A stretch of 64,000 nucleotides of DNA from Escherichia coli (GTDB lineage Bacteria; Pseudomonadota; Gammaproteobacteria; Enterobacterales; Enterobacteriaceae). This document shows, in pieces, positions 3,730 to 41,166 of this stretch. The notes under the pieces were generated by a model. The model was given only the letters and a program-made list of their open reading frames with translations, made no database searches and was not told the DNA's origin. Within the stretch, counting starts at the first letter, position 1. Each line of letters starts with the position of its first letter. The stretch lies in the NCBI RefSeq assembly GCF_013315695.1, contig NZ_CP054353.1, one strand, 5' to 3'. Made by a program: the position numbers and the translations under genes.

Positions 3730-5554
<1,825 letters not shown>

Positions 5555-5577
5555 ATAATCGCTTTTGGAGTGAAAAA

Positions 5578-5597
5578 GGGCTGACAACTGTCAGCCC
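5578..5597. terminator. bidirectional intrinsic terminator between yciU and oppF
   Basis: Hairpin GGGCTGACA-ac-TGTCAGCCC flanked by an A-run upstream and T-rich sequence downstream, between convergent genes. Confidence 0.5.
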
Positions 5598-5606
5598 TTA
5601 TTGTGT

Positions 5607-6611
5607 TTAAAGCGGATCGACTTTCAGGCAAGAAACGGCGTGTCTGAAACTCCCCTCCAGCACAGGACGTGTTTTGGCACACTCCGGACCGGCAATCGGA
5701 CAACGGGTACGGAAAACACAACCGGAAGGCGGGTTGATCGGCGACGGTAATTCCCCTTCCAGTAACTGGATGGTTTTGTTCTTCTCCAGATCCGGATCAG
5801 GTATGGGGACTGCCGACATCAATGCCCTGGTGTAAGGATGTAGTGGATTGTGGTAGACCTCATCATAGGTCCCCAGTTCTACCGCATGGCCGAGATACAT
5901 CACTAACACACGATCGGAAATGTGTTTTACCACGGCCAGGTCGTGAGCGATAAAAATTAATGACAATCCCATCTCACGTTGTAACTGCTGGAGCAGGTTG
6001 ACCACCTGCGCCTGAATTGACACATCCAGCGCCGACACCGGCTCATCACAGATAATCAGCTTCGGTTCAAGAATAAGTGCACGTGCAATCCCGATACGCT
6101 GGCACTGCCCACCAGAGAACTCATGCGGATAGCGGTTAATCAGGTTAGGCAATAACCCGACTTTCAGCATCATCGCCTTCACGCGCTCGCGAACTTCCTG
6201 GCGTGACATTTTCGGATGATAAGTACGCAGTGGTTCAGCGATGATCTCGCCGATGGTCATACGCGGGTTCAGCGATGCCAACGGATCCTGGAAAATCATC
6301 TGAATATCACTGCGAACGGCACGCCATTCATCGGGCTTCATGCCCAGCAACTCTTTACCTAACCAGGCAACATGACCGTCGGTCGCCTTGACCAAACCGA
6401 TGATGGCGCGAGCAAAGGTGGACTTACCGCATCCCGATTCCCCTACCACACCTAATGTTTCCCCTTCATACAGGCGAAGAGTTACACCATCGACGGCTTT
6501 GAGCGTTTTCGGCGGTTGCCAGAACCACTGTTTGCCATCTTTGATTTCAAAGTGCACTTTCAGATCGGCGATTTCGAGGAGGACTTTTCTTCCTTCGGTT
6601 ACAGCATTCAT
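5607..6611 (-). CDS. oppF: oligopeptide ABC transporter ATP-binding protein OppF
   Basis: 334 aa; Walker A GESGCGKST, ABC signature LSGGQ; overlaps oppD by 4 nt. Confidence 0.93.
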   Translation of the reverse strand: MNAVTEGRKVLLEIADLKVHFEIKDGKQWFWQPPKTLKAVDGVTLRLYEGETLGVVGESGCGKSTFARAIIGLVKATDGHVAWLGKELLGMKPDEWRAVRSDIQMIFQDPLASLNPRMTIGEIIAEPLRTYHPKMSRQEVRERVKAMMLKVGLLPNLINRYPHEFSGGQCQRIGIARALILEPKLIICDEPVSALDVSIQAQVVNLLQQLQREMGLSLIFIAHDLAVVKHISDRVLVMYLGHAVELGTYDEVYHNPLHPYTRALMSAVPIPDPDLEKNKTIQLLEGELPSPINPPSGCVFRTRCPIAGPECAKTRPVLEGSFRHAVSCLKVDPL

Positions 6612-7621
6612 AACAGTTCCTCCACCGGTTTAAAGCAAGCACGCAGACGGCCAGGCGTAAACTCTTCCAGCGGCGGTGCGCTACTACAAATTTCCATCGC
6701 ATGCGGACAACGTGGCTGGAACGGGCAACCTTTCGGTAATCGCAGCAGGTTTGGCGGATTACCCGGAATAGTCAACATTGTTTCACCTTCCGCATCGAGA
6801 CGCGGCACCGCGTTGAGCAAACCGATAGAATAAGGATGAACGGGTTGATAAAAGACATCGCGCGCGTTGCCATATTCCATCGTGCGCCCGGCGTACATTA
6901 CCAGCACTTTGTCGCAGATCCCCGCCACCACGCCAAGATCGTGGGTGATCATAATGATGGCGGTATTAAATTCCCGCTTCAGTTCATTCAATAGCGTCAT
7001 GATCTGCGCCTGTACGGTGACGTCCAGCGCAGTAGTGGGTTCATCCGCAATCAGCAGCTTAGGTCGACATAGCAACGCCATCGCAATCATGACTCGCTGA
7101 CGCATGCCGCCAGAAAATTCGTGCGGGTACATTTTCATGCGTTTACGCGCTTCCGGCATTTTTACCGCATCGAGCATCCGCACCGACTCTTCAAACGCCT
7201 CAGCTTTGCTCATGTTCTTATGCAGCATCAGCACTTCCATCAACTGCTCACCGACGCGCATATAGGGATTCAACGAAGTCATTGGGTCCTGAAAAATCAT
7301 TGAGATTTGTTCAGCTCGCAGTTTATTGAGTTCACGCTCTGGCAAATTGAGGATTTCACGCCCATTGAAGGTTGCCGATCCGCCAATACGTCCGTTGGCA
7401 GCCAACAGGCCCATCAACGCAAATGCGGTTTGCGATTTGCCCGAACCAGACTCACCTACGATGCCCAGCGTTTCTCCGGCACGTAGGGAAAAATTCAGAT
7501 CATTGACCGCCGTGACGTCGCCGTCCGGGGTATTAAAGGTGACACGCAAATCTTTCACGTTCAGCAGTGCGTCAGCCTGTTGTTGTGCGAGCGGCACAGT
7601 TGCAGTTTCAATTACGCTCAT
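6608..7621 (-). CDS. oppD: oligopeptide ABC transporter ATP-binding protein OppD
   Basis: 337 aa; Walker A GESGSGKSQ, FSGGMRQR signature. Confidence 0.93.
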   Translation of the reverse strand: MSVIETATVPLAQQQADALLNVKDLRVTFNTPDGDVTAVNDLNFSLRAGETLGIVGESGSGKSQTAFALMGLLAANGRIGGSATFNGREILNLPERELNKLRAEQISMIFQDPMTSLNPYMRVGEQLMEVLMLHKNMSKAEAFEESVRMLDAVKMPEARKRMKMYPHEFSGGMRQRVMIAMALLCRPKLLIADEPTTALDVTVQAQIMTLLNELKREFNTAIIMITHDLGVVAGICDKVLVMYAGRTMEYGNARDVFYQPVHPYSIGLLNAVPRLDAEGETMLTIPGNPPNLLRLPKGCPFQPRCPHAMEICSSAPPLEEFTPGRLRACFKPVEELL

Positions 7622-7632
7622 GGCTGCACTCC

Positions 7633-8541
7633 TTAACGATCTTTCGGGTCGAGGGCATCACGCAAGCCATCGCCGATAAAGTTGAAACAAAATAGCGTCA
7701 CCACGAGGAATCCCGCTGGGAACAACAGTAACCATGGAGAGACTTCCATCGAGTTCGCGCCATCACTCAGCAATGCGCCCCAGCTGCTTAACGGCTCTTG
7801 CGTCCCCAACCCCAGGAAGCTAAGGAAAGATTCAAAGAGGATCATGCTGGGCACCAATAGCGATGCGTAGACCACCACCACACCGAGTACGTTCGGCACA
7901 ATGTGGCGAATAACAATGCCCGGCGTCGATACACCGCCAACTTGTGCCGCCTCAATAAACTCTTTGCGCTTCAGACTCAGGGTTTGCCCACGCACAATAC
8001 GAGCCATATCCAGCCAGGAAACCATGCCAATCGCCACGAAAATCAGCAGGATGTTTTGACCGAAAAAGGTCACCAGCAAAATGACGAAGAACATGAATGG
8101 GAAGGAGTTGAGGATTTCCAGCAGACGCATCATTACCGAATCCACTTTACCGCCCAGATAACCGGAAAGCGAACCATAAAGTGTCCCCACGACCACTGCC
8201 ACCAGTGCCGCAGCAACACCGACCATGAGTGAGATACGCCCGCCAATCGCAACGCGCACAAGCAGGTCGCGACCAGATGAGTCAGTACCAAAGTAGTGAC
8301 CGGACTCCATATCCGGGGCGCTGGACATCATCGCCCAGTCAGTATCGTCATAGGCAAACTGCGAAAGCATCGGTGCCAGGATGACAAATAACGCGATCAG
8401 CACCAGCACTATCAGACTGGCAACCGCCGCACGGTTATGCATAAAACGTCGACGTGCGTCCTGCCACAAGCTGCGCCCTTCGACCTCCAGCTTTTCACTG
8501 AAATTTTCCAGCGTCTCGCTGTTTTTCTTACTTAACATCAT
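7633..8541 (-). CDS. oppC: oligopeptide ABC transporter permease OppC
   Basis: 302 aa polytopic membrane protein; operon position. Confidence 0.92.
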   Translation of the reverse strand: MMLSKKNSETLENFSEKLEVEGRSLWQDARRRFMHNRAAVASLIVLVLIALFVILAPMLSQFAYDDTDWAMMSSAPDMESGHYFGTDSSGRDLLVRVAIGGRISLMVGVAAALVAVVVGTLYGSLSGYLGGKVDSVMMRLLEILNSFPFMFFVILLVTFFGQNILLIFVAIGMVSWLDMARIVRGQTLSLKRKEFIEAAQVGGVSTPGIVIRHIVPNVLGVVVVYASLLVPSMILFESFLSFLGLGTQEPLSSWGALLSDGANSMEVSPWLLLFPAGFLVVTLFCFNFIGDGLRDALDPKDR

Positions 8542-8555
8542 CGCGAGCTCCAGTA

Positions 8556-9476
8556 TCAGTAACGGATTTTCGGGTCGATAACCGCATATAGCACATCGAC
8601 AATGGCATTAAACAAAATGGTTAAAGCACCAACCAGGATGGTCAGGCTTAACACTAAGGAATAGTCACGGTTCAATGCACCATTAACGAACAATTGCCCA
8701 ATCCCCGGCAAACCATAAATGGTTTCGATGACCATAGAACCGGTAATAATGCCGACAAATGCAGGGCCCATATAGGAGAGCACGGGTAACAGAGCAGGTT
8801 TTAATGCGTGGCGTAAAATGATCCGCCGCATAGGTAACCCTTTCGCCCGGGCAGTACGAATAAAGTTGGAGTGTAATACTTCAATCATAGAGCCACGGGT
8901 AATACGCGCAATACTGGCGATATAGGCGAGTGACAACGCCACCATTGGCAGTATCATGAATTTAAGCGCACCACCATTCCAGCCACCGCCCGGCAGCCAA
9001 TGCAAAATGATCGCAAATATCATGACTAATAATGGCGCAACCACAAAACTGGGGATAACAACCCCGGTCATTGCCAGCCCCATCACGGTATAGTCCCATT
9101 TGGTGTTTTGTTTTAATGCGGCAATAACGCCAGCACTAACACCCAGTATTACCGCAAGGAAAAATGCTGCGGCTCCCAGTTTGGCAGAAACGGGAAAACT
9201 GGATGCAACCAGGTCATTGACCGAATAATCTTTATATTTAAACGATGGACCGAAATCGCCATGCGCCAGTTGTTTCAGGTAGCTGAAATACTGTGTCATG
9301 ATCGGATCATTAAGATGATATTTCGCTTCGATATTGGCCATCACTTCCGGTGGTAAAGTACGTTCGCCGGTAAAAGGACTGCCCGGCGCGAGGCGCATCA
9401 TAAAGAACGAAATAGTAATAAGAATAAATAGCGTCGGAATCGCTTCCAGACAGCGACGTAGAATAAATTTTAACAT
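8556..9476 (-). CDS. oppB: oligopeptide ABC transporter permease OppB
   Basis: 306 aa polytopic membrane protein; operon position. Confidence 0.92.
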   Translation of the reverse strand: MLKFILRRCLEAIPTLFILITISFFMMRLAPGSPFTGERTLPPEVMANIEAKYHLNDPIMTQYFSYLKQLAHGDFGPSFKYKDYSVNDLVASSFPVSAKLGAAAFFLAVILGVSAGVIAALKQNTKWDYTVMGLAMTGVVIPSFVVAPLLVMIFAIILHWLPGGGWNGGALKFMILPMVALSLAYIASIARITRGSMIEVLHSNFIRTARAKGLPMRRIILRHALKPALLPVLSYMGPAFVGIITGSMVIETIYGLPGIGQLFVNGALNRDYSLVLSLTILVGALTILFNAIVDVLYAVIDPKIRY

Positions 9477-9561
9477 TGCCCTACCTTCTGGCCTGTGCCT
9501 TCTGTAATGCGATAAAAATCAGACACCGTGGAGCAGGACACTCCTGCCCCACGTATTGCCA

Positions 9562-11193
9562 TTAGTGCTTCACAATGTACATATTCCGGGTGTAGGTATT
9601 ATCCAGCGGATCTTTGCCGGTATAGCCACCAACCCACGGTTTCACCAGACGCGCATTCACGTAGTAATAAACAGGAACAATGGCCGAATCCTTATCCAGC
9701 TGTTGTTCTGCTTTAGTGTACAGAGCTGTGCGCTGCGCCTCGTCAGTCGCTTTCAGCGTTTCCGCCATAATGCTGTCAAAGGCCGGGCTCTTATAATGCG
9801 CGGTATTCATCGAGCTGTTCGACAGCATGGTGTTCAGGAAGGAAGTTGGTTCGTTGTAGTCTGCACACCAGCCTGCACGGGCCACATCAAAAGTGCCCTG
9901 GTGACGGGTGTCGAGGAACGTTTTCCACTCCTGGTTAACCAGTTTGACGTTTACACCAATGTTTTTCTTCCACAATGAAGAGGCAGCAATCGCCAGCTTT
10001 TTATGCAGATCGGAGGTGTTATACAACAGGTTGATGGTTAACGGTTTGTCTGCGGTATAACCCGCTTCAGCCAGCAGTTTTTTCGCTTCTTCGTTACGTT
10101 TTTCCTGGCTCCAGCCAAACCATTCCGGCTGAGTCAATTTTGCGCCATCAGTATATGGTGGAGTGTAACCATAGGCGGGCATGTCGCCCTGCGCTTTCAC
10201 TTTATTAACAATGATATCGCGGTCCATACCCAATTTCAGTGCGGTACGCACACGCACGTCATTAAATGGCGGTTTCTGGTTGTTAATTTCGTAATAGTAA
10301 GTGCACAGGTATGGATCAACGTGAACTTCGTCCGGGATCTCTTTTTTCAGCTTCTGGAACAATTCGATCGGCATGTTGTTATAAGTCATGTCGATTTCAC
10401 CACTACGGTAGCGGTTGACATCGGTAACTTCAGAAGCAATAGGCAAATAGGTTACCTGGTTAATAACGGTTTTCGCGTTGTTCCAGTAGGTCGGGCTGCG
10501 TTCAAGAACGATTCGTTCGTTTACGACCCAATCTTTTAAGGTATAGGCACCGTTGGTGACGATATTACCAGGCTGGGTCCATTTTTCGCCGAATTTCTCG
10601 ATAGCGGCTTTTGGCACCGGTGAAGTTGATGGGTGAACAAGTAATTTATAGAAGTACGGAACAGGTTCACTTAAGGTGACTTCTAATGTGTGATCATCAA
10701 TAGCTTTCACGCCGAGATCGGTAATCGGTTTTTTCCCTTCAAGAATTTCATCAATACCGGCGATATGCCCATATTGCAGATAACTGGCATACGGAGAAGC
10801 AGTGTTTGGATCAACAGAACGTTGCCAGCTATACACAAAGTCTTGTGCTGTGACTGGCGTGCCATCAGACCATTTCGCATCTTTACGCAAATGGAAGGTC
10901 CAGACTTTCGCGTCTTTATTATCCCAGGATTCAGCGACGCCAGGTGCCGGATGGCCGTCAAGATCGCTAACCAGTAAGCCTTCAAACAGGTCTCGGCTGA
11001 TATTAGACTCCGGAACACCTTCAATTTTGTGCGGATCTAATGACTGAACTTCTGAACCATTGTTACGTACCAGCGTTTGTTTTTCCGCCAGTGTGACACC
11101 TGCGGGTACATCAGCTGCCAGCGCGACATTCCCTGCCATAAGCGCAGCCAAAACGCCAGCTGCTACTAAACTTCTCTTGGTGATGTTGGTCAT
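9562..11193 (-). CDS. oppA: periplasmic oligopeptide-binding protein OppA
   Basis: ORF 9562..11265; start at MTNITKRSLVAAGVLAALMAGNVALA (signal peptide) gives 543 aa. Confidence 0.92.
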   Translation of the reverse strand: MTNITKRSLVAAGVLAALMAGNVALAADVPAGVTLAEKQTLVRNNGSEVQSLDPHKIEGVPESNISRDLFEGLLVSDLDGHPAPGVAESWDNKDAKVWTFHLRKDAKWSDGTPVTAQDFVYSWQRSVDPNTASPYASYLQYGHIAGIDEILEGKKPITDLGVKAIDDHTLEVTLSEPVPYFYKLLVHPSTSPVPKAAIEKFGEKWTQPGNIVTNGAYTLKDWVVNERIVLERSPTYWNNAKTVINQVTYLPIASEVTDVNRYRSGEIDMTYNNMPIELFQKLKKEIPDEVHVDPYLCTYYYEINNQKPPFNDVRVRTALKLGMDRDIIVNKVKAQGDMPAYGYTPPYTDGAKLTQPEWFGWSQEKRNEEAKKLLAEAGYTADKPLTINLLYNTSDLHKKLAIAASSLWKKNIGVNVKLVNQEWKTFLDTRHQGTFDVARAGWCADYNEPTSFLNTMLSNSSMNTAHYKSPAFDSIMAETLKATDEAQRTALYTKAEQQLDKDSAIVPVYYYVNARLVKPWVGGYTGKDPLDNTYTRNMYIVKH

Positions 11194-11930
11194 TGTTTTT
11201 TGGACTCCCTCATTATAATTACTGGTATTAACCAGCATGTGTAATCCCGGATTGGGACCCTGCACAGGCTCGGAGACTTTCTGCTGTCAGGTTACTTTAT
11301 CGTTACGTATTACTATCACCGACTTTATTAATTCTGGTGATTCAGACGATCACCTTATGTCGATTCGTACTGTGTCTCCCCTGTCGAGACACATTATTCT
11401 TTCGCGACGATCTTTAATTGTTAATTATTCTCATTACCAATAAAGAATCGCCTTGCGGTTGCCCGGAAAGTACCAAATGCGGTTCTTACTCGCCAATACA
11501 TTTTGCAAAATTGTTAAGCAATTCTCTTTTATTGACCGTATCAGAATCTATAGCTTGCATCCATGCCTTAACAAACATCTTTCAATTCAATCAAATAGAG
11601 GTTGGTTAAGCATGTCTCTCTTTTCTGATTACAGTTCCAGTAGTGAAATGCACAATAATTTAACAATTGATTATTATTTAGCACTTTCCTCTGCCAAAGG
11701 CAGTGGAATTACTAATATCATTTCAATTATTCTTCAGCAAGCCCAGGATTATGATGTGGCGAAAATAACATGATGGTGAGGAGAAGCAGTTGAGGAAATC
11801 CTTATAACTAACTGTAATTTGAGAAGAATATTTTTACCTACTCCTTTTGCTTTTGATAACTGCGCAGGAACAAAGTAAAAATAATGACGAAGTAAACGGA
11901 GCATGGCAGCTCCGTTTCAATTGAAAGGAA

Positions 11931-12578
11931 TTAATTAAGCAGGCCGGGGAAAATCCCCTTAATACCAGTAACGATAAATTCAATCCCCAATGCCATCAGC
12001 AATAGCCCCATAATACGCGTAATCACGTTGATGCCGGTCTGGCGTAAAACCCGTACCAGCCACGGTGCCATGCGAAACAATCCCCAGCAACATAAAGCGA
12101 ACAATGCAATAGCCACAAAGAAACCAAACAGATAGCTAATGCTGTGATAACGCGTACCCCAGACGATGGTAGAACTGATCGCCCCTGGCCCCGCCATCAA
12201 CGGCAACGCCAATGGCACCACACCAATGCTTTCACGTACCGCGGTTTCTGATTTTTCTTGCTTGTTCTGTTTATCCTCACCAAGCTTGCCGCTGATCATC
12301 GACATCGCTATTGTCACCACCAGGATGCCCCCGGCGATACGGAATGAATCAATTGATATACCAAAAAGTTGTAGAATCGTGTCGCCGAGAAAAAGCGAGA
12401 TCCACAAGATAATGGCCACAGACAGGTTGGCTGTAAGGTTCGTTTTGTTTCGCGCTGCCGCTGTCTGATAACTGGTCATGCTGATAAAGACGGGAATAAT
12501 CCCTACCGGGTTGACCAGCGCAAATAACCCGATGAAAAATTTGAAGTAAACGGGAAAATCAAAAAGGGTCTGAATCAC
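11931..12578 (-). CDS. ychE: MarC-family inner membrane protein YchE
   Basis: 215 aa hydrophobic ORF; conserved position between oppA and adhE. Confidence 0.85.
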   Translation of the reverse strand: MIQTLFDFPVYFKFFIGLFALVNPVGIIPVFISMTSYQTAAARNKTNLTANLSVAIILWISLFLGDTILQLFGISIDSFRIAGGILVVTIAMSMISGKLGEDKQNKQEKSETAVRESIGVVPLALPLMAGPGAISSTIVWGTRYHSISYLFGFFVAIALFALCCWGLFRMAPWLVRVLRQTGINVITRIMGLLLMALGIEFIVTGIKGIFPGLLN

Positions 12579-13054
12579 GGTTAGCTCCGAAGCAAAAGCC
12601 GGATAATGTTAGCCATAAATAAGGTTGAAAAGACGCGCTGACAATACGCCTTTTGACAGCATTTTTCACCTCCTAACTACTTAAAATTGCTATCATTCGT
12701 TATTGTTATCTAGTTGTGCAAAACATGCTAATGTAGCCAACAAATCATACTACAATTTATTAACTGTTAGCTATAATGGCGAAAAGCCATGCTGAAAGGT
12801 GTCAGCTTTGCAAAATTTTGATTTGGATCACGTAATCAGTACCCAGAAGTGAGTAATCTTGCTTACGCCACCTGGAAGTGACGCATTAGAGATAATAACT
12901 CTAATGTTTAAACTCTTTTAGTAAATCACAGTGAGTGTGAGCGCGAGTAAGCTTTTGATTTCCATCGGTTAAGCAAATCATCACCGCACTGACTATACTC
13001 TCGTATTCGAGCAGATGATTTACTAAAAAAGTTTAACATTATCAGGAGAGCATT

Positions 13055-15730
13055 ATGGCTGTTACTAATGTCGCTGAACTTAACGCACTCGTAGAGCGTG
13101 TAAAAAAAGCCCAGCGTGAATATGCCAGTTTCACTCAAGAGCAAGTAGACAAAATCTTCCGCGCCGCCGCTCTGGCTGCTGCAGATGCTCGAATCCCACT
13201 CGCGAAAATGGCCGTTGCCGAATCCGGCATGGGTATCGTCGAAGATAAAGTGATCAAAAACCACTTTGCTTCTGAATATATCTACAACGCTTATAAAGAT
13301 GAAAAAACCTGTGGTGTTCTGTCTGAAGACGACACTTTTGGTACCATCACTATCGCTGAACCCATCGGTATTATTTGCGGTATCGTTCCGACCACTAACC
13401 CGACTTCAACTGCTATCTTCAAATCGCTGATCAGCCTGAAGACCCGTAACGCCATTATCTTCTCCCCGCACCCGCGTGCAAAAGATGCAACCAACAAAGC
13501 GGCTGATATCGTTCTGCAGGCTGCTATCGCTGCCGGTGCTCCGAAAGATCTGATCGGCTGGATCGATCAACCTTCGGTTGAACTGTCTAACGCACTGATG
13601 CACCACCCAGACATCAACCTGATCCTCGCGACTGGTGGTCCGGGCATGGTTAAAGCCGCATACAGCTCCGGTAAACCAGCTATCGGCGTAGGCGCGGGCA
13701 ACACTCCGGTTGTTATCGATGAAACTGCTGATATCAAACGTGCAGTTGCATCTGTACTGATGTCCAAAACCTTCGACAACGGCGTAATCTGTGCTTCTGA
13801 ACAGTCTGTTGTTGTTGTTGACTCTGTTTATGACGCAGTACGTGAACGTTTCGCAACCCACGGCGGCTATCTGTTGCAGGGTAAAGAGCTGAAAGCTGTT
13901 CAGGACGTTATCCTGAAAAACGGTGCGCTGAACGCAGCTATCGTTGGTCAGCCAGCCTATAAAATTGCTGAACTGGCAGGCTTCTCTGTACCAGAAAACA
14001 CCAAGATTCTGATCGGTGAAGTGACCGTTGTTGATGAAAGCGAACCGTTCGCACATGAAAAACTGTCCCCAACTCTGGCAATGTACCGCGCTAAAGATTT
14101 CGAAGACGCGGTAGAAAAAGCAGAGAAACTGGTTGCTATGGGCGGTATCGGTCATACCTCTTGCCTGTACACTGACCAGGATAACCAACCGGCTCGCGTT
14201 TCTTACTTCGGTCAGAAAATGAAAACGGCTCGTATCCTGATTAACACCCCGGCTTCTCAGGGTGGTATCGGTGACCTGTATAACTTCAAACTCGCACCTT
14301 CCCTGACTCTGGGTTGTGGTTCCTGGGGTGGTAACTCCATCTCTGAAAACGTTGGTCCGAAACACCTGATCAACAAGAAAACCGTTGCTAAGCGAGCTGA
14401 AAACATGTTGTGGCACAAACTTCCGAAATCTATCTACTTCCGCCGTGGCTCCCTGCCAATCGCGCTGGATGAAGTGATTACTGATGGCCACAAACGTGCG
14501 CTCATCGTGACTGACCGCTTCCTGTTTAACAATGGTTATGCTGATCAGATCACTTCCGTACTGAAAGCAGCAGGCGTTGAAACTGAAGTCTTCTTCGAAG
14601 TAGAAGCTGACCCGACCCTGAGCATCGTTCGTAAAGGTGCAGAACTGGCAAACTCCTTCAAACCAGACGTGATTATCGCGCTGGGTGGTGGTTCCCCGAT
14701 GGACGCCGCGAAGATCATGTGGGTTATGTACGAACATCCGGAAACTCACTTCGAAGAGCTGGCGCTGCGCTTTATGGATATCCGTAAACGTATCTACAAG
14801 TTCCCGAAAATGGGCGTGAAAGCGAAAATGATCGCTGTCACCACCACTTCTGGTACAGGTTCTGAAGTCACTCCGTTTGCGGTTGTAACTGACGACGCTA
14901 CTGGTCAGAAATATCCGCTGGCAGACTATGCGCTGACCCCGGATATGGCGATTGTCGATGCCAATCTGGTTATGGACATGCCGAAGTCCCTGTGTGCTTT
15001 CGGTGGTCTGGACGCAGTAACTCACGCCATGGAAGCTTATGTTTCTGTACTGGCATCTGAGTTCTCTGATGGTCAGGCTCTGCAGGCGCTGAAACTGCTG
15101 AAAGAATATCTGCCAGCGTCCTACCACGAAGGATCTAAAAATCCGGTAGCGCGTGAACGTGTTCACAGTGCAGCAACTATCGCGGGTATCGCGTTTGCGA
15201 ACGCCTTCCTGGGTGTATGTCACTCAATGGCGCACAAACTGGGTTCCCAGTTCCATATTCCGCACGGTCTGGCAAACGCCCTGCTGATTTGTAACGTTAT
15301 TCGCTACAACGCGAACGACAACCCGACCAAGCAGACTGCATTCAGCCAGTATGACCGTCCGCAGGCTCGCCGTCGTTATGCTGAAATTGCTGACCACCTG
15401 GGTCTGAGCGCACCGGGCGACCGTACTGCTGCTAAGATCGAGAAACTGCTGGCATGGCTGGAAACGCTGAAAGCTGAACTGGGTATTCCGAAATCTATCC
15501 GTGAAGCTGGCGTTCAGGAAGCAGACTTCCTGGCGAATGTGGATAAACTGTCTGAAGATGCATTCGATGACCAGTGCACCGGCGCTAACCCGCGTTACCC
15601 ACTGATCTCCGAGCTGAAACAGATTCTGCTGGATACCTACTACGGTCGTGATTATGTAGAAGGTGAAACTGCAGCGAAAAAAGAAGCCGCTCCGGCTAAA
15701 GCTGAGAAAAAAGCGAAGAAATCCGCTTAA
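13055..15730 (+). CDS. adhE: bifunctional aldehyde/alcohol dehydrogenase AdhE
   Basis: 891 aa; N-terminal aldehyde dehydrogenase and C-terminal iron-type alcohol dehydrogenase domains; C-terminal [19 protein letters not shown] tail. Confidence 0.95.
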
Positions 15731-23992: not shown

Positions 23993-24076
<84 letters not shown>

Positions 24077-24110: not shown

Positions 24111-24195
<85 letters not shown>

Positions 24196-40163: not shown

Positions 40164-40698
40164 ACTGCAACAGCTGTTGAAAAGCCGGAATGTACTCTTT
40201 ATTGCAAACATTTCAGGGATGAAGTGAAGATGAATTGAGACGTAGTATCCACACCAAGCCGGCGTTATCCGGTGAGGCGCAATGTTGCGGGGGCTTTATC
40301 CCTGGTGGCATTGGTTGCTGGAAAGAGAAAACCCCCGCACGTTGAGAGGTACAACCTGACAACAGAACGGGGGCTAATCTTGAACCACAACAATTCAAGA
40401 ATAGCCGCAAAATGTTGTCCTTACAACAAGGCGGCTATATGACGCTCGCGCAGTTTGCCATGATTTTCTGGCACGATCTGGCAGCACCGATCCTGGCGGG
40501 AATTATTACCGCAGTGATTGTCAGCTGGTGGCGTAACCGGAAGTAAGGTGAAAACGGGCGTCAGGCTGCCGTGATGGCAATATGCGCCCGAAACCGGCCG
40601 CAGGGGTAACAGCCTGCGGCCCTTTTTGTCTTTATCTCTTCTGCAAGTAAATATTGGCAACCCGAGCTGGAAGCATCATCCAGAGCACTCATGAAACG
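40164..40698 (+). repeat. LDR (long direct repeat) unit 1, ldr/rdl type I toxin-antitoxin locus
   Basis: 535-bp unit nearly identical to 40699..~41166 (a few SNPs); contains the ldr ORF and its terminator. Unit boundaries approximate. Confidence 0.8.
40439..40546 (+). CDS. ldr: Ldr small toxic peptide (35 aa), type I toxin
   Basis: Encodes MTLAQFAMIFWHDLAAPILAGIITAVIVSWWRNRK; below the length cut-off of the ORF track; followed by hairpin plus T-run terminator (40596..40627). Confidence 0.85.
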   Translation: MTLAQFAMIFWHDLAAPILAGIITAVIVSWWRNRK

Positions 40699-41166
40699 AC
40701 TGTAACAGCTGTTGAAAAACCGGAATGCACTCTTCATTGCAAACATTTCAGGGATGAAGTGAAGATGAATTGAGACGTAGTATCCACACCAAGCCGGCGT
40801 TATCCGGTGAGGCGCAATGTTGCGGGGGCTTTATCCCTGGTGGCATTGGTTGCTGGAAAGAGAAAACCCCCGCACGTTGAGAGGTACAACCTGACAACAG
40901 AACGGGGGCTAATCTTGAACCACAACAATTCAAGAATAGCCGCAAAATGTTGTCCTTACAACAAGGCGGCTATATGACGCTCGCGCAGTTTGCCATGATT
41001 TTCTGGCACGATCTGGCAGCACCGATCCTGGCGGGAATTATTACCGCAGTGATTGTCAGCTGGTGGCGTAACCGGAAGTAAGGTGAAAACGGGCGTCAGG
41101 CTGCCGTGATGGCAATATGCGCCCGAAACCGGCCGCAGGGGTAATAGCCTGCGGCCTTTTTTGTAT
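40699..41166 (+). repeat. LDR unit 2, ldr/rdl type I toxin-antitoxin locus
   Basis: Second tandem copy; ends just past the terminator hairpin (41131..41162), where sequence diverges towards kdsA. Confidence 0.8.
40974..41081 (+). CDS. ldr: Ldr small toxic peptide (35 aa), second copy
   Basis: Identical 35-aa peptide to the first copy, 535 bp downstream. Confidence 0.85.
   Translation: MTLAQFAMIFWHDLAAPILAGIITAVIVSWWRNRK

Follow-up and report, generated by a model that had tools for sequence, protein, structure and literature searches.

In the malEFG operon, a stem-loop in the malE-malF spacer blocks 3'-to-5' exonucleases once the downstream RNA has been cleaved, according to the Newbury/Higgins model as summarised by Dar and Sorek (2018). 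The same authors report that substrate-binding-protein genes of ABC operons, malE among them, are selectively stabilised by 3' hairpins, and that trimming by PNPase/RNase II leaves Rho-terminated Escherichia coli transcripts ending at stable stem-loops that lack U tracts (Dar and Sorek, 2018, NAR). A different arrangement is found at gltI-gltJ, where a leaky terminator gives rise to a monocistronic gltI mRNA and to the SroC sRNA (Miyakoshi et al., 2015). In Vibrio cholerae, OppZ, an sRNA cut from the oppF 3' UTR, blocks translation of oppB (Hoyos et al., 2020).

Here we describe a hairpin between oppA and oppB of E. coli that is a well-supported example of the well-known kind represented by malE-malF and gltI-gltJ. 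The specific element is newly described: in the searchable literature we found no earlier description of the hairpin, of a monocistronic oppA transcript, or of sRNA pairing at E. coli oppB. Covariation supports the hairpin, an RNA end maps to the same place, and a Rho-sensitive stretch of oppB lies downstream. We regard it as real and, in all likelihood, functional, though as a device it is unsurprising. At the level of sequence, it offers an account of how a single promoter can yield far more OppA than OppBCDF in enterobacteria.

The oppA-oppB spacer and its hairpin

The DNA analysed is a 64-kb stretch of E. coli, here called the window. Gene names were taken from the RefSeq annotation of 100%-identical E. 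coli DNA and mapped onto the window, and were used together with a list of its open reading frames. The opp genes lie on the minus strand in the order oppA, an 85-nt spacer, oppB, oppC, oppD and oppF. RefSeq and the reading-frame list place the coding sequence of oppA, the periplasmic oligopeptide-binding protein, at 9562-11193, with its UAA stop codon at 9562-9564, and that of the permease gene oppB at 8556-9476; the spacer occupies 9477-9561. Read as RNA, 5' to 3', the spacer is UGGCAAUA-CGUGGGGCAGGA-GUG-UCCUGCUCCACG-GUGUCUGAUUUUUAUCGCAUUACAGAAGGCACAGGCCAGAAGGUAGGGCA, and it is identical in the window and in K-12 MG1655. Of 5426 complete E. coli genomes, 5422 contain a single copy of a 285-nt stretch around the hairpin at an identity of at least 95%, and in those genomes it is flanked by genes annotated as oppA and oppB. 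RefSeq carries no annotated feature under the hairpin itself.

Folding and covariation both define a core hairpin at 9527-9553 on the minus strand, consisting of a 5' arm CGUGGGGCAGGA (9542-9553), a 3-nt GUG loop (9539-9541) and a 3' arm UCCUGCUCCACG (9527-9538). Its helix has 12 bp, including 9 G-C pairs and one G.U, all of them standard in RNA, and a predicted energy of -21.0 kcal/mol. An earlier note, made from the sequence, had remarked on an inverted repeat in this spacer (9477-9561), and the 12-bp minus-strand RNA helix bears this out. The details needed correction. The repeat had been placed at ~9516..9537, about 14 nt away from the quoted letters, which occupy 9530-9550; moreover, those letters (GGAGCAGGA-cac-TCCTGCCCC) had been presented as the minus strand and are in fact the plus-strand reading, the RNA being GGGGCAGGA-GUG-UCCUGCUCC. 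The description of the repeat as imperfect is right for the DNA, which has a single mismatch, and not for the RNA, in which this position forms a G.U wobble and the helix is longer than had been described.

The hairpin is also predicted when the whole spacer is folded, a check that had been proposed along with the repeat. The minimum free energy of the spacer is -33.7 kcal/mol (z = -3.82), and only 1 of 200 dinucleotide shuffles folded equally well. Taken alone, the 27-nt hairpin has an energy that is reached by just 2 of the 127,948 27-nt segments on both strands of the 64-kb window, which makes it the second most stable hairpin of this size; the other is a terminator at 41131-41157. None of 10 dinucleotide-shuffled whole windows contained a segment reaching -21.0 kcal/mol, the best being -20.2 kcal/mol. 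Both the minimum-free-energy and the centroid structures add a candidate outer helix of 4 bp, in which GGCA (9557-9560) pairs with UGUC (9522-9525), with a small internal loop between it and the core (9522-9560 overall, minus strand). The pair probability of this outer helix is 0.78 in E. coli and averages 0.31 across species; its four pairs are all invariant in the alignment, which leaves no covariation to score. Three variants sampled within E. coli carry changes in the stop codon (UAA to UGA), the internal loop or the two apical pairs, and leave the core and its flanks unaltered.

Several other structured RNAs are encoded in the window. The hairpin at 41131-41157 (plus strand), the most stable of its 27-nt size, reads GGCCGCAGG-GGUAAUAGC-CCUGCGGCC followed by U6 and is a canonical intrinsic terminator. 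At the far end of the operon, a hairpin at 5576-5599, AAGGGCUGACA-GUUG-UGUCAGCCCUU, begins 10 nt past the oppF stop. There are U runs on both strands, and the hairpin resembles a bidirectional terminator, one that yciU would share. Rfam and ARAGORN further identified the isrC sRNA (619-741, plus), two rdlD antitoxin RNAs in the ldr/rdl repeat region (40326-40391 and 40861-40926, minus) and two tandem tRNA-Tyr(GUA) genes (23993-24075 and 24111-24195, plus).

Conservation across Enterobacteriaceae and beyond

We extracted oppA-oppB spacers from 80 oppB loci, one genome per species. A hairpin is present at the same position in 78 of them, across Enterobacteriaceae from Escherichia to Cedecea, Kosakonia and Siccibacter, and these 78 spacers share a common architecture. 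UGGCAA comes right after the stop codon and is followed by the GC-rich hairpin, whose top is variable, sometimes branched and up to ~100 nt long; then come GUGUCU, usually a U-rich linker, optional insertions (a second hairpin or an ERIC-like element) and the oppB leader. Total spacer length ranges from 82 to 233 nt. In the window, all on the minus strand, the 5' flank UGGCAA (spacer nt 1-6, 9556-9561) is invariant or at least 97% conserved in 78 of the 80 Enterobacteriaceae spacers, and the 3' flank GUGUCU (spacer nt 36-41, 9521-9526) is invariant in the alignment. Column conservation over 79 spacers and alignment A2 define a nearly invariant oppB leader, AUUACAGAAGGCACAGGCCAGAAGGUAGGGCA (9477-9509), which contains AGGCAC (9495-9500), GCCA (9489-9492) and the Shine-Dalgarno-like GAAGG (9484-9488); its consensus across species is AAGGCAC-AN-GCCAGAAGGUACGGGCA-AUG. 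Flanks and the ~30-nt leader are thus invariant across genera, while hairpin tops and linkers diverge freely.

Covariation was counted on the named hairpin structure in alignment A1, which comprises 65 distinct short modules. Changes on both sides that keep the pair were found in 11 of 12 helix pairs, compared with 5.6 +/- 1.1 after shuffling, and the observed count was reached in 0 of 500 shuffles. All 10 core pairs show compensatory changes among the 65 distinct sequences, and 90.3% of cells in this alignment are paired, a share that drops to 49% or less once the partner is shifted by 1-3 columns. RNAalifold independently recovers the same 10-bp core helix. The Salmonella stem, GGGAUAAC/GUUAUCCC, is wholly different in sequence and occupies the same position. 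As judged from these alignments, the hairpin structure is under selection, its pairing being maintained by compensatory evolution across Enterobacteriaceae.

Outgroups were taken from the loci of OppB relatives in Dickeya, Lonsdalea, Edwardsiella, Xenorhabdus, Providencia, Morganella and Pantoea. In all seven of these Enterobacterales genera the spacer is unrelated in sequence and has a strong GC hairpin a few to ~23 nt past the oppA stop; a U6 tail follows this hairpin only in Pantoea.

The spacers also differ in what they have acquired. Some Citrobacter spacers (loci L007, L041, L052 and L053, upstream of oppB at ~2270-2500 per locus) are 223-233 nt long and hold an insert of ~110 nt that resembles the core of the ERIC/IRU repeat (GAATCGCCAGGAGCTTACTTAAGTAAGTGACGGGCGTGAGCG), and the Morganella spacer (L090, 743-900) has a comparable long palindromic insert. 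In every case the insert is placed downstream of the U-rich tract and upstream of the conserved oppB leader. Spacers of ~120 nt (L020, L035 and ~30 other loci) instead carry a second, sequence-variable hairpin between the U-rich tail and the leader, and in Siccibacter/Franconibacter (L009, L030, L013) the sole U5 tail sits on this second hairpin. In Pectobacterium sp. B1J-3 (L088, 276-900), no oppA is called upstream of oppB, and ~625 nt of AT-rich non-coding DNA lie between oppB and adhE; its oppA may have been lost or relocated.

The mapped RNA end and its possible origins

A Term-seq study of E. coli reports a 'primary' oppA 3' end at MG1655 1302856(+), with a read count of 3660 in LB at OD 0.4, and calls this end in one of three growth conditions only (Adams et al., 2021, eLife 10:e62438, Supplementary file 1). 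The oppA stop ends at MG1655 1302813, which puts the mapped end at spacer nucleotide 43, or window position 9519 on the minus strand. This in vivo RNA, ending ...CCACGGUGUCUGA-3', stops 8 nt past the core stem and directly before a U5 run, in the context ...CCACGGUGUCUGA/UUUUUAUCG (the slash marks the end). Its last nucleotide is the A preceding U44-U48, so that it retains no U of the run; canonical terminators in the same table, for example sgrS, end inside the U run (Adams et al., 2021). The earlier note had taken uniform transcript coverage of the spacer with no mapped 3' ends as the observation that would speak against its proposal, a partial terminator or mRNA-stabilising hairpin. Term-seq does map one there, at 9519, and this end together with the compensatory pairing supports the proposal.

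The bicyclomycin experiment of the same study lists a Rho region whose best position is MG1655 1303199 (Adams et al., 2021, Supplementary file 2), corresponding to window 9176, 300 nt into oppB. DirectRNA-seq coverage, compared in 800-nt windows, fell from 532 to 303 without the drug and from 691 to 644 with it, giving downstream/upstream ratios of 0.57 and 0.93, respectively (p = 4e-8); the Rho score at oppB, likewise computed with 800-nt windows, is a modest 1.64 (Adams et al., 2021). These values suggest polarity exerted by Rho in E. coli, at the same junction on which the OppZ sRNA acts in Vibrio. The first ~240 nt of oppB have a mild C-over-G skew of 1.1-1.4, compared with 0.89 for the operon, and the skewed stretch at 9238-9445 lies just upstream of the Rho peak at window 9176. 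In Salmonella, TIER-seq assigns 15 RNase E sites to the 346 nt that precede oppB, far above neighbouring entries. The TIER-seq table treats these 346 nt (SL1344 1796340-1796685) as a 5' UTR, which implies an annotated transcription start within the 3' part of Salmonella oppA.

Given these data, the reading we favour, and consider rather probable, is that the hairpin is an exonuclease-blocking stem-loop that defines the 3' end of an oppA-only mRNA. RNA polymerase would usually pass through the spacer into oppB. A fraction of the transcripts would then lose their downstream part, either through Rho stopping transcription in the first few hundred nucleotides of oppB, through RNase E cutting the single-stranded AU-rich linker at GA/UUUUU, or through both. 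RNase E prefers sites of the form RN/WUU, which the GA/UUU junction at the mapped end fits. PNPase and RNase II would trim the remaining RNA from 3' to 5' and stall a few nucleotides from the very stable GC stem. We propose that the hairpin-capped oppA segment would outlive the oppBCDF RNA and that, therefore, the binding protein would exceed the membrane and ATPase subunits. With this hairpin the cell can probably produce the peptide-binding protein in excess of the membrane transporter, a protein ratio that we infer from this scheme. Such an element, unannotated in RefSeq, could be flagged as the 3' boundary of the oppA transcription unit, and it may find practical use as a natural intercistronic 'valve', with no general principle altered.

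As in known protective stem-loops, a stable hairpin is here accompanied by a precise steady-state 3' end a few nucleotides downstream. Three points tell against this reading: the U-rich tail past the outer helix, which in most Enterobacteriaceae looks like selection for termination; the detection of the 3' end in one condition; and the modest Rho score. The oppA-oppB pair is also absent from the list of differentially decaying gene pairs of Dar and Sorek (2018), though the operon was in the input set; one exclusion criterion of that analysis was a terminator-like Term-seq site.

Other explanations ascribe the conserved spacer to something else entirely. It is barely credible that the hairpin plays no part in opp and is incidental or selfish sequence, whether a chance palindrome or a repeat of the REP/BIME/ERIC type. 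REP elements do fill such a role in malE-malF, and some Citrobacter oppA-oppB spacers do contain ERIC-like inserts, but the opp hairpin is single copy (a median of one place per genome in the 5422 E. coli genomes and, with up to 3 mismatches allowed, a single match in the window), has no Rfam match, is stable far beyond chance and is conserved in position with compensatory changes. A dispersed REP/BIME/ERIC repeat is effectively refuted by this copy number. Searches of Rfam 15 at E <= 1 over window 5000-13500 returned nothing except a spurious snoRNA match elsewhere, and at the gathering score there was no match at the hairpin site in the window or in three related loci (L020, L041, L090). The spacer might alternatively code for a small protein, or for a re-initiation frame, with the hairpin as part of its coding sequence. 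An AUG does overlap the oppA stop in 78 of 80 species (UAAUG, window 9561-9564; UGAUG in O157:H7), and the E. coli frame runs for 30 codons to a UAA overlapping the AUGUUAA of oppB. Yet neither the frame nor the length of this ORF is conserved (7 to 49 codons), its stop often lies within the hairpin, the frame is not preserved by spacer lengths of 82-233 nt, oppB is reached in only 18 of 78 cases, and there is no amino-acid conservation past the flank-encoded MA(I/M)RGA. With frame and length varying in this way, a conserved coding unit was rejected, and we hold a coding role to be highly improbable. A more elaborate possibility arises from the flanks, which can take part in two incompatible pairings, namely the local 4-bp helix and a long-range set joining UGGC to GCCA (P1) and GUGUCU to AGGCAC (P3). 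The whole spacer could then be one structured, switchable module, in which the flanks pair either with each other, lengthening the hairpin into a protective or terminator-like stem, or with the oppB leader, and a three-way junction, alternating with the local helix, brings the oppA stop next to the oppB ribosome-binding site. If this were true, a ribosome terminating at oppA would open the junction and so set oppB initiation against Rho exposure. RNAalifold on 34 short spacers (alignment A2) returns exactly this three-way junction, closing the spacer up to the oppB Shine-Dalgarno sequence, and the Pantoea minimum-free-energy fold likewise closes its spacer up to that sequence. Flanks and leader are invariant in 78 species where the hairpin top and linker vary; all insertions, whether second hairpins or ERIC-like elements, fall in the would-be P3 loop; G36, U41 and U1 are invariant though unused by the local helix; and two one-sided consistent changes turn a U.G into U-A (Siccibacter) or C-G (Franconibacter). 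We nonetheless think such a module unlikely. The junction positions are all invariant, which makes covariation impossible to count there, and the predicted probabilities are low and mixed on average (P1 0.11, P3 0.34, local helix 0.31) and favour the local helix in E. coli (0.03, 0.13 and 0.78, respectively). In addition, Siccibacter and Franconibacter lack an intact terminal U41-A pair, the leader variation is accounted for just as well by a small local GGC-ACAN-GCC hairpin, and the outgroup spacers cannot be aligned.

The closest rival is a leaky Rho-independent terminator, in which the hairpin, the GGCA/UGUC helix and the U-rich tract would stop some polymerases within the spacer, and the end at 9519 would be a terminated RNA from which a few unpaired U residues had been nibbled off. 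Tails were scored in the style of TransTermHP, on a scale where 1.9 is the median and 3.2 the 95th percentile for random 15-mers and where the canonical terminator at 41131-41157, our positive control, scores 5.0. Measured from the core stem, the E. coli U5 run (9514-9518, minus strand) begins after 9 nt and the tail scores 2.1; measured from the outer helix, the values are 3 nt and 3.3. Across 79 species the score past the outer helix has a median of 3.9, being at least 2.5 in 71 and at least 3.5 in 48 of them; Citrobacter reaches 5.1-5.6, and Citrobacter and Salmonella together span 4.8-5.6, comparable to the positive control. A terminator would likewise account for Siccibacter and Franconibacter, which have no tail on the first hairpin and a second hairpin followed by U5, for the U6 tail of the Pantoea hairpin, and for the invariant GUGUCU and UGGCA flanks as the base of its stem. 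The spacing of 8 nt between stem and 3' end agrees with the geometry of termination, and gltI-gltJ provides a precedent for a leaky terminator behind a binding-protein gene. The site does have the GC-rich stem-loop of a terminator (12 bp, 9 G-C, -21.0 kcal/mol), but the RNA ends at the A before U44-U48 rather than within a U tract, and a consensus terminator scan did not call it. The U5 run starts 9 nt past the strong stem, the outer helix is weak (mean probability 0.31), and the final 8-nt hybrid, GUGUCUGA, contains only 3 U. The hairpin is, moreover, conserved in lineages without any U tract, such as Lelliottia and Enterobacter, which have UAACCAACG; six of the seven outgroup genera have no U tract either, and the downstream drop in coverage is mostly bicyclomycin-sensitive. 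For the element as a whole we consider leaky termination possible, if on the doubtful side. Its likelihood rises in lineages whose U tract is contiguous, and it probably also operates in Citrobacter, Salmonella and Pantoea, where the U run directly follows the stem.

We return to the protective stem-loop as the preferred reading. In E. coli, the mapped oppA end probably arose after Rho termination in oppB, through 3' trimming or RNase E cleavage. We favour this route over termination at the hairpin because the mapped end keeps no U, because the final 8-nt RNA:DNA hybrid is U-poor, because the hairpin is conserved in lineages that have no U tract, and because most of the downstream loss of coverage is Rho-dependent. 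The two routes are mutually compatible, and the product either way is a hairpin-capped oppA mRNA.

Comparison with known systems

Among the described systems, malE-malF resembles opp in that the first gene encodes a periplasmic binding protein and a stable stem-loop precedes the permease gene. The mRNA of the mal binding protein exceeds that of the permease, and on the shared arrangement of genes and hairpin opp may, by analogy, behave alike; differential decay was measured for mal, whereas for opp we infer the mRNA excess. The elements differ in kind, the mal element being a pair of dispersed REP sequences and the opp hairpin a unique, single-copy one. The protective stem-loops of Rho-terminated transcripts share with opp a stable hairpin, a 3' end just downstream that lies outside a U tract, and C-over-G enrichment with bicyclomycin-sensitive readthrough further downstream. 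Unlike them, the opp hairpin is internal to its operon instead of terminal, with a U5 run a few nucleotides further on.

The gltI-gltJ hairpin likewise lies directly 3' of the gene for an ABC binding protein, with a short mRNA beside the full operon transcript. It is a canonical Rho-independent terminator with an Hfq-bound sRNA as its product, whereas the opp 3' end lacks the U tail of an Hfq-type sRNA terminator. In Salmonella, oppA is absent from the table of 3'UTR-sRNA candidates.

OppZ of V. cholerae acts at the same operon junction, where it uncouples oppA from oppBCDF, and there too the loss of downstream RNA is Rho-dependent. An E. coli analogue in the oppF 3' UTR was considered and rejected: only 10 nt separate the oppF stop codon from its terminator, and therefore there is no room for an OppZ-type sRNA. 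The complementarity found was no better than in shuffled sequences (duplex energy -21.9, against -24.3 +/- 4.1). The E. coli hairpin, unlike OppZ control in Vibrio, needs no sRNA. The opp operon can thus be seen as a comparative case, in which a Vibrio sRNA and an enterobacterial hairpin address one stoichiometry problem at the same junction.
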